UHGV virus genome: UHGV-1960391
Source: a virus
DNA: 9,574 bases
Strand: one strand, 5' to 3'
Shown here: positions 803 to 9,430 of the stretch, one piece after another
How the letters are laid out: each line of letters opens with the position of its first letter
Position numbering within the stretch: the stretch's first letter is position 1
Program-made: the position numbers and the translations under genes
Notes under the pieces: model-generated
Told to the model about the DNA's origin: nothing
Database searches by the model: none
The model's input: only the letters and a program-made list of their open reading frames with translations

Positions 803-833
803 AAGCAAAAAAAGCGCCCCGCAGGGCGCTGTT
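803..833 (-). terminator. Rho-independent terminator downstream of the pVIII-like gene (minus strand)
   Basis: Inverted repeat AGCGCCC-cgca-GGGCGCT (813-830); on the minus strand the stem-loop is followed by a run of about 8 T (complement of the A-run at 804-812). Position matches the strong terminator after gene VIII in Ff phages. Confidence 0.6.
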
Positions 834-845
834 GTTAAATAACTA

Positions 846-1106
<261 letters not shown>

Positions 1107-1113
1107 TTAAAAA

Positions 1114-1284
1114 TTAATTAACAACATCGCTGAACATCCGGCAGACCAGAGTGAAAATAACACCAAGGCCAAAACCAAGAAGCCAGCAGACAATCCAGAC
1201 ATACAGAACGGCCCAGTAAAGCTCCCCGTCCTGTACACCAGAATTTATTGCGGATAAAACACCGCTGAAATCGAATTCAGTCAT
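1114..1284 (-). CDS. Small hydrophobic protein, candidate minor virion protein (pVII/pIX position)
   Basis: Track ORF 1114..1317; I favour the internal ATG at 1284 (MTEFDFSG...WAVLYVWIVCWLLGFGLGVIFTLVCRMF), which overlaps the upstream stop as ATGACTGA. One predicted TM helix; function assigned by position only. Confidence 0.4.
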   Translation of the reverse strand: MTEFDFSGVLSAINSGVQDGELYWAVLYVWIVCWLLGFGLGVIFTLVCRMFSDVVN

Positions 1285-1417
1285 AATAACGCTGAACAGT
1301 AATGATTTGTGAGTCACAGGCGCGAATCAGTTTTATTCCGATGCCAAAACCTGAAGAGAATAAAATCATTGCAGGCGCAGCGAATAAAACAAAGTTAAGA
1401 AAATCAGCGTCAGACAT
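1277..1417 (-). CDS. Small hydrophobic protein, candidate minor virion protein (pVII/pIX position)
   Basis: Track ORF 1277..1471; I favour the internal ATG at 1417 immediately after the upstream stop (MSDADFLNFVLFAAPAMILFSSGFGIGIKLIR...). Hydrophobic core with GIGIK motif; function by position only. Confidence 0.35.
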   Translation of the reverse strand: MSDADFLNFVLFAAPAMILFSSGFGIGIKLIRACDSQIITVQRYYD

Positions 1418-1421
1418 ATCA

Positions 1422-1847
1422 TCAGCCTTTTTCTTTACCTGCGGGCAGTGCACCCAGTGGCTGACCGTCAAAACGTTTCATGGAGCCGGAAATAAAACGA
1501 TACCAGACGCCATGACGTTCAGAGCCTGTTGCCCATGAATTCACATCCACCGTGAGATAAACAGGTTTACCCTTCAGGTCAGGACATGAATTAAAAAATT
1601 TAAAATCCTCCTCAGTACAGGAAAAGCGCTCATGCTCCTCACGACGGACTTTTAATTTTTTGTCCTCATACGGATAGGCAATAACAATGGCATATTTGGG
1701 TTTAGCCTCAGGGTTATAATGAGTACCACCGGGCTTTAACTCCTCATCATTTATAACAGTGGCGTGAATAAAATATCCCGCCATTGTCATACCTGCGGTA
1801 AAACCATCAGGGGAAGGAAACGGAAAGCTGTCGTAAATTTGATTCAT
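1422..1847 (-). CDS. Hypothetical 141-aa protein in the gene V position (possible ssDNA-binding protein; unproven)
   Basis: Complete ORF with good RBS (GAGGAG about 8 nt upstream of ATG at 1847), directly downstream of Rep. No motif I can recognise; larger than Ff gV (87 aa). Confidence 0.6.
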   Translation of the reverse strand: MNQIYDSFPFPSPDGFTAGMTMAGYFIHATVINDEELKPGGTHYNPEAKPKYAIVIAYPYEDKKLKVRREEHERFSCTEEDFKFFNSCPDLKGKPVYLTVDVNSWATGSERHGVWYRFISGSMKRFDGQPLGALPAGKEKG

Positions 1848-1877
1848 AAATCAGACTCCTCAATGTTAAAAATTCAG

Positions 1878-3970
<2,093 letters not shown>

Positions 3971-7548: not shown

Positions 7549-9238
<1,690 letters not shown>

Positions 9239-9252
<14 letters not shown>

Positions 9253-9430
9253 GACCACCCCCAAAATCAAAAGAGAAAGGCTTAACAATGTTGCGAAAAT
9301 CACGGTCAGAAACTTCTGAAACAGATGAAACAATATAATCATCAACAGTTATATTCTGTCGTTCGATAATTTTTTCTATCTTCTTTATTACATCAACGGG
9401 TATTTGTAGCCGGATTTCTGTCTTTTGCAT
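9239..9430 (-). CDS. Hypothetical small protein, possibly ribbon-helix-helix-like, between terminator and g3p
   Basis: 63-aa ORF; MQKTEIRLQIPVDVIKKIEKIIERQNITVDDYIVSSVSE fits a beta-strand/helix/helix pattern; weak RBS; 3' end overlaps the preferred g3p start by 14 nt. Confidence 0.3.

Follow-up and report, generated by a model that had tools for sequence, protein, structure and literature searches.

A putative OB-fold ssDNA-binding protein in the gene V slot of gpA-type filamentous phages

The virus genome UHGV-1960391 encodes, next to a rolling-circle replication gene, a 141-amino-acid (141-aa) protein that is probably (at roughly 70%) the phage's own ssDNA-sequestering protein, that is, an analogue of the gene V protein with a predicted OB fold of the SSB/PriB type. 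This reading is supported by the position of the gene, which occupies the same slot as in M13, by synteny in seven divergent loci, and by purifying selection. It is also supported by the OB fold with its SSB-class structural neighbours, by weak matches to the Pfam family PF17426, and by conserved columns of aromatic and basic residues. Moreover, the family is restricted to inoviruses, and the block that extends from the replication gene (rep) to the coat gene contains no further candidate for an ssDNA-binding gene. A sequence-only reading of the same DNA had proposed either a divergent ssDNA-binding protein or an RstB-like integration accessory factor, and this proposal gains computational support from a predicted OB fold whose best matches are SSB, PriB, and phage SSBs. 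The two options are compatible rather than exclusive; RstB of CTXphi has itself been described as resembling ssDNA-binding proteins (PMC3545932).

The stretch of DNA analyzed here, referred to as the window, comprises 9574 nt, and nearly every gene in it lies on the minus strand. The coding sequence of the 141-aa protein (1422..1847, minus strand), defined by its open reading frame (ORF), codon comparison, and an AF2 model, runs from an ATG at 1847-1845 to a TGA at 1424-1422 and thus contains 141 codons plus a stop. This ATG is the sole possible start, with an in-frame stop two codons upstream. The strong Shine-Dalgarno sequence that had been claimed for the gene can be read as GAGGAG (1856..1861, minus strand), 8 nt 5' of the ATG. 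The claim that the product is about 60% larger than the Ff gene V protein (gVp) also holds (141 aa vs 87 aa for M13 gVp, i.e., 62% longer); a length of approx. 140 aa has a precedent in this slot, namely the 144-aa ssDNA-binding protein of Pf1. The ORF is a real gene, well beyond a chance frame, because its homologues span 100% to 26% identity and pairwise dN/dS values are 0.08-0.33 among codon-aligned close and intermediate relatives for which dS is unsaturated. In codon-aligned pairs with nearly saturated dS, the ratio is still below 0.65. The gene is under purifying selection.

Directly upstream lies a 670-aa rolling-circle replication gene of the P2 gpA type (1878..3890, minus strand; Pfam Phage_GPA, 2.9e-48; phrog_91, 1.6e-128), whose stop codon (1880-1878) is separated from the ATG of the 141-aa gene by a 30-nt spacer. 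On the other side, a small hydrophobic ORF of 46 aa (1277..1417, minus strand), which is an annotated CDS in an E. coli relative, begins 4 nt past the stop of the 141-aa gene and overlaps by 8 nt a second small hydrophobic ORF of 56 aa (1114..1284, minus strand); both occupy gVII/gIX-like positions. These are followed by the 80-aa major coat protein gene (846..1088, minus strand), assigned by position and by a match to phrog_1646 (E 1.8e-4). The rep-to-coat transcription unit ends in a terminator-like GC hairpin with a T-run (813..830, minus strand), which lies directly 3' of the coat gene and is the counterpart of the terminator that follows gVIII in Ff. The order in the window, i.e., rep, the 141-aa gene, two small ORFs, coat gene, and terminator, equals gII-gV-gVII-gIX-gVIII-terminator in the M13 annotation, so the gene sits in the Ff gene V slot, as the sequence-only reading had claimed, between rep and the small-ORF/coat block. 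A search of the ORFs of the rep-to-coat block with Pfam and PHROGs revealed no second candidate ssDNA-binding gene. The window also contains two different g3p-type genes (1-786 and 7549-9345), one of which is cut at the window edge. Thus, the window covers parts of two filamentous prophages or the junction of a tandem array; the 141-aa gene belongs to the right-hand (rep-to-coat) module.

The same arrangement recurs in distant relatives. In all seven divergent loci inspected (26-48% identity; L026/L027, L028, L029, L113, L114, and L115), the family gene follows a Phage_GPA Rep gene in an inovirus setting, and in some of them one additional small ORF separates the two. Downstream, as far as the contigs permit, these loci carry small ORFs, a coat gene, a long adsorption-type gene, a DUF2523 (pVI-like) gene, and Zot. 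The additional ORF encodes 57-111 aa and is located at 4528-4737 in L028, 3569-3742 in L029, and 2581-2916 in L114; the window has none. In L027 (1153-5326), the gpA-type rep of a distant relative is interrupted by an IS21-family insertion (IstB and transposase), and another filamentous prophage on this contig has a Rep of the Rep_trans type.

At the sequence level, the protein contains no familiar motif, as had been noticed from the sequence alone and as is borne out by Pfam, NCBIfam, PHROG, and PDB sequences. In particular, Pfam and NCBIfam gave no match above threshold, and searches of PDB sequences gave no credible match. The Ff gVp family PF02303 (Phage_DNA_bind) was not matched at E≤0.1; M13 gVp itself scored 1.3e-42 against this profile. 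Comparison of the 20-sequence family profile by hhalign yielded a probability of 0.3% with M13 gVp, 0.3% with VGJphi ORF112 (DUF1293), and less than 1% with the Pf1 gene 5 protein (g5p). The bacterial SSB family (PF00436) was likewise not matched in Pfam, and an alignment of 31 gammaproteobacterial SSB OB domains reached only 0.2% in hhalign. The family HMM matched nothing in the VGJphi genome. No sequence method connects the 141-aa protein to Ff gVp, Pf1 g5p, Pf3 SSB, VGJ ORF112, or bacterial SSB, and the absence of a link to characterized ssDNA-binding families counts against the gene V reading. The remote homology search that had been suggested as a check also found no confident homology to an unrelated family.

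The nearest approach to a known family is PF17426 (Putative_G5P), which matches the 141-aa protein at residues 85-122 only, with 14.9 bits (gathering cut-off 25) and an E value of 0.029. Such weak matches, all below the gathering cut-off, recur in 9 of 16 family members (best E 0.006) over the β4-L45-β5 region of the predicted fold. Members of PF17426 were sought for a profile comparison, but none was found in 401 gammaproteobacterial genomes or in 14 control genomes. In one paper, PF17426 proteins are reported, by annotation, as neighbours of Rep in small rolling-circle replicons (PMC10378824), which is consistent with an ssDNA-related role.

The structural prediction is more informative. A first AF2 model, built from 11 close sequences, was poor (pLDDT 52), and a fold search from it was uninformative. 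The second model, based on an alignment of 20 sequences (A3; 25-100% identity), reached a pLDDT of 78.2 and a pTM of 0.69, with local pLDDT values of approx. 86-92 for residues 21-100 and 88 for residues 121-130. It consists of β1 (20-31), a loop L12 with a short helix (32-51), β2 (52-62), β3 (67-77), a helix (79-86), β4 (95-101), a flexible low-confidence L45 loop (102-115) that contains W105, β5 (approx. 116-124), and a Lys-rich tail (131-141). The protein is therefore predicted to adopt an OB fold of the order β1-β2-β3-helix-β4-β5, in which the helix lies between strands 3 and 4. An OB-fold prediction had been proposed as a check of the ssDNA-binding hypothesis; the model is of this type, and its best structural matches are ssDNA-binding proteins in both libraries searched.

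In a Foldseek search of the PDB, the best 50 matches are all SSB, mitochondrial SSB, PriB, or editosome OB proteins. They include the SSBs of Coxiella, E. coli, Mycobacterium, Streptomyces, Klebsiella, and others, human mitochondrial SSB, Plasmodium SSB, PriB of five bacteria, and trypanosome editosome OB proteins. These 50 matches have E values from 1.1e-3 to 1.6e-2, probabilities of 0.91-1.00, target-normalized TM scores of 0.23-0.58, and rmsd values of 5-7 Å. In BFVD, the named matches are almost all phage single-stranded-DNA-binding proteins (best E 3.2e-4, TMt 0.61). Single Foldseek scores are marginal, and the weight of the prediction comes from the uniform functional class of the matches across two independent libraries. 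Structures of Ff gVp are absent from the best 50 PDB matches; thus, the predicted fold looks nearer to SSB/PriB than to gVp. The fold assignment depends on one AF2 model from 20 sequences, and this single model, together with the marginal E values (~1e-3) and the rmsd of 5-7 Å, counts against the gene V reading.

The family is narrow. The window protein matches phrog_30648 ("unknown function") over its full length (E 2.3e-97), and all distant relatives are assigned to this PHROG and to no other. A profile search of 1.84 billion representative proteins returned nine matches, and three further members came from a word-indexed search of 5.8 billion proteins. Near-identical copies, annotated only as "hypothetical protein", are found in 39 of 5426 complete E. 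coli genomes, always between a "replication endonuclease" and small hypothetical genes and in many cases as part of tandem prophage arrays. Another type, with 57-58% identity, is present in 8 additional E. coli genomes, with up to 11 copies each. The gene also occurs in the genomes of four Xenorhabdus species, as judged by a degenerate DNA pattern that reports presence only and not gene order. No match to the family was obtained in a profile scan of genome contigs with alignment A1, and neither the window protein nor a distant member, used as queries, retrieved any relative from GenBank phages. E. coli IHE3034 and S88, examined for CUS-1/YpfPhi, contain neither the family gene nor any Zot gene.

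Every gpA-type inovirus record recovered from IMG/VR has the family gene. In contrast, a Phage_GPA gene is present in 130 of 401 genomes of Enterobacteriaceae species representatives, and the family is found in only 2 of the same 401; an HMM check of a P2-like tailed-phage locus with gpA detected no homologue of the 141-aa protein. The family is thus a core gene of gpA-type inoviruses and no general partner of gpA. This distribution favours a role connected with the filamentous lifestyle (ssDNA handling, packaging) over a role in gpA catalysis.

It also bears on the strongest rival explanation, according to which the protein is a PriB-like accessory of the gpA-type Rep. Its binding to ssDNA would then take place at the nicked origin, where it would recruit or stimulate Rep or a host helicase, and it would not coat and sequester the entire progeny strand. 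PriB structures score about level with SSB in the fold search, the gene comes directly after a Phage_GPA Rep in all loci examined, and no member was found with another Rep type. Moreover, in a review of YpfPhi, a related phage, the gene after rep was placed in the "replication" module (PMC4266046). However, since gpA is common in genomes without the family and the P2-like locus also lacks it, the 141-aa protein is dispensable for gpA function as such. In one relative, Rep is 77% identical to that of the window and the 141-aa protein is 96% identical, a difference that speaks against close co-adaptation of the two. An accessory of this kind would also leave the phage without any ssDNA-sequestering protein. 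Taken with the distribution of the family, these points make a PriB-like accessory unlikely.

The residue composition of the protein bears on the nature of its ligand. OB-fold proteins stack on and grip ssDNA with aromatic and basic residues. Phe, Trp, and Tyr together account for 20 of the 141 residues of the window protein, and across the family the aromatic columns F16, F26, W105, W115, Y116, and F126 are invariant or nearly so, as are the basic columns K49, K51, K64, R74, and R125. The C-terminus (..RFDGQPLGALPAGKEKG, ending in ..PAGKEKG) is short; its final ~10 residues are predicted to be disordered, and in almost every member this segment is rich in Lys (..AGKEKG, ..ILNKK, ..LQKK). E. 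coli SSB recruits replication and repair proteins via its acidic ..DDDIPF tip; neither an acidic tip of this type nor a Gly/Pro-rich linker is present in the 141-aa protein. The pI of the protein is near neutral (6.4 vs 9.2 for M13 gVp), which is a mild point against the gene V reading.

OB folds also bind proteins and oligosaccharides, which counts against the gene V reading as well. It is therefore conceivable, if still less likely than a PriB-like accessory, that the protein merely fills the slot and binds a non-DNA ligand such as a host protein or an envelope component, acting in superinfection exclusion, assembly chaperoning, or host modulation. Such a role would be in keeping with the functional diversity of OB folds, with the near-neutral pI, and with the lack of sequence homology to any DNA-binding family. 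However, almost all of the proteins that the model resembles in the two libraries bind ssDNA rather than belonging to other OB classes, and the position of the gene within the replication-to-coat unit is conserved. Furthermore, PADLOC found no defence-system match for the protein, and neither a signal peptide nor a hydrophobic segment occurs in its sequence.

Locally, VDVNSWATGSERHGVWY resembles the NSWG...G.WY stretch of aminopeptidase C; a profile search of PDB sequences gave this match an E value of 0.0025 across 66 residues (E 0.21 with the single sequence). The protein might on this basis be a degenerate papain-like (C1 peptidase) fragment, a reading that was rejected and is very improbable. 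The column aligned to the catalytic His is Phe/Tyr in the family, and the Asn of "NSW" is not conserved in distant members (EPASW, LPSAW, QDGSW, KPGAW). The protein also lacks an N-terminal domain with the catalytic Cys, and a papain fold would need more than 141 aa. Finally, the model is an OB fold with no peptidase among the top structural matches. The "NSWxT..G.WY" likeness, which spans window positions 1482-1595 (residues 85-122; PDB 5wdk, 3pw3), is most likely a convergent β-hairpin motif.

Among characterized proteins, Ff gVp (M13/f1/fd; PF02303) is the closest counterpart in position: its gene follows rep and precedes the genes for the small virion-cap proteins and for the coat protein, within a highly expressed unit that ends at a terminator. 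Ff gVp, which binds ssDNA cooperatively as a dimer, is likewise a small all-β OB-type barrel, and the presumed shared role, by analogy, is the coating of progeny ssDNA, which blocks its conversion to the replicative form. In contrast to Ff gVp, with which it has no detectable sequence similarity, the 141-aa protein is much longer, is near-neutral rather than basic, and in its model has the β3-β4 helix that is typical of SSB/PriB-type OB folds. Bacterial and mitochondrial SSBs and PriB, the best structural matches, share with the model the order β1-β2-β3-α-β4-β5 and a long flexible L45 loop with a conserved Trp. PriB itself is a dimer of single OB domains of about 100 aa that works together with PriA. 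However, SSB (PF00436) shows no profile similarity to the 141-aa protein, whose tail is short, Lys-rich, and devoid of a linker or acidic tip, and the 141-aa gene differs from SSB and PriB genes in being phage-encoded and restricted to gpA-type inoviruses.

Two further comparisons concern proteins of other filamentous phages. The Pf1 gene 5 protein (144 aa; phrog_1144) shows that an ssDNA-binding protein of such a length is normal in this slot of inoviruses, but it has no sequence similarity to the 141-aa protein and belongs to a separate PHROG. RstB of CTXphi and ORF112 of VGJphi (DUF1293 / phrog_1410), like the 141-aa gene, come immediately after rep in a filamentous phage. VGJ ORF112 differs in having no sequence similarity to the 141-aa family, which is found only in phrog_30648. 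RstB has been described both as ssDNA-binding-protein-like and as needed for integration (PMC3545932), and by analogy a second, RstB-like role for the 141-aa protein is plausible. Judged by its sequence, the 141-aa family is a separate orphan, distinct from the Ff, Pf1, Pf3, and VGJ/RstB families.

If the protein is an ssDNA-sequestering gene V analogue, its action may be envisaged as follows. The 141-aa protein would be translated from the rep-to-coat transcript at its strong ribosome-binding site. As would be expected from knowledge of the Rep family, the gpA-type Rep would nick the replicative form, and rolling-circle synthesis would displace the plus strand. The 141-aa protein would then coat the displaced strand, presumably via F26, W105, W115, Y116, F126, and other conserved aromatic residues, and K49, K51, K64, R74, and R125 together with the short Lys-rich C-terminal tail would also be used in coating. 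With no acidic tip, the protein would not recruit the primosome or the replisome, and the coated strand would escape host SSB-dependent priming, complementary-strand synthesis, and conversion to the replicative form. As with Ff gVp, by analogy, this strand would subsequently be passed to the Zot/pI-secretin export machine, where the coat protein would replace the 141-aa protein. More speculatively, the 141-aa protein may also protect the ssDNA that serves in XerCD integration, or present it to this reaction, a role that has been suggested for RstB of CTXphi.

A bolder extension of this scheme, possible but doubtful, is that the protein serves as an "SSB decoy" specific to gpA-type filamentous phages. 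In this capacity, it would combine the SSB/PriB fold with a basic tail in place of the acidic tip, outcompete host SSB on the displaced strand, and in this way stop PriA/PriB/primase-dependent complementary-strand synthesis, and it would additionally hold folded dif-like hairpins single-stranded for XerCD integration in an RstB-like manner. If this were true, one protein would couple the choice among replication, packaging, and integration.

An ssDNA-binding protein in the gene V slot is what a specialist would expect and represents no new kind of biology; nevertheless, the assignment is useful for annotation. It proposes a function for an orphan core gene that is known only as a "hypothetical protein" or as phrog_30648 of "unknown function" and that is carried by filamentous prophages in human and animal E. 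coli isolates and in Xenorhabdus. It would also add an independent solution to the inovirus "gene V problem", beside the Ff, Pf1, Pf3, and VGJ/RstB types. As the predicted fold has its closer neighbours in cellular SSB/PriB and not in Ff gVp, the assignment bears on how frequently inoviruses have turned to different OB-fold proteins in order to sequester ssDNA.

Several further observations concern the evolution of these prophages. On a single chromosome, tandem arrays hold as many as 5 copies of the window type, or as many as 11 in the case of the 58%-identity type (e.g., NZ_CP039404.1 2385705-2406412, L001; NZ_AP027790.1), and in some of the tandem E. coli copies the rep, Zot, or g3p genes are frameshifted or truncated. 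The relative in which a Rep 77% identical to the window Rep adjoins a 141-aa gene that is 96% identical (L013 / L074, IMGVR_UViG_2529293142) suggests a recombination breakpoint between rep and the gene in the gene V slot, i.e., module shuffling. Finally, a MAG of Candidatus Endobugula (L045, 2615-2770) contains only a C-terminal fragment of the family (..GIWYRYGHGALRRFDGK..) in a short frame, perhaps what is left of a decayed copy in the genome of this symbiont.
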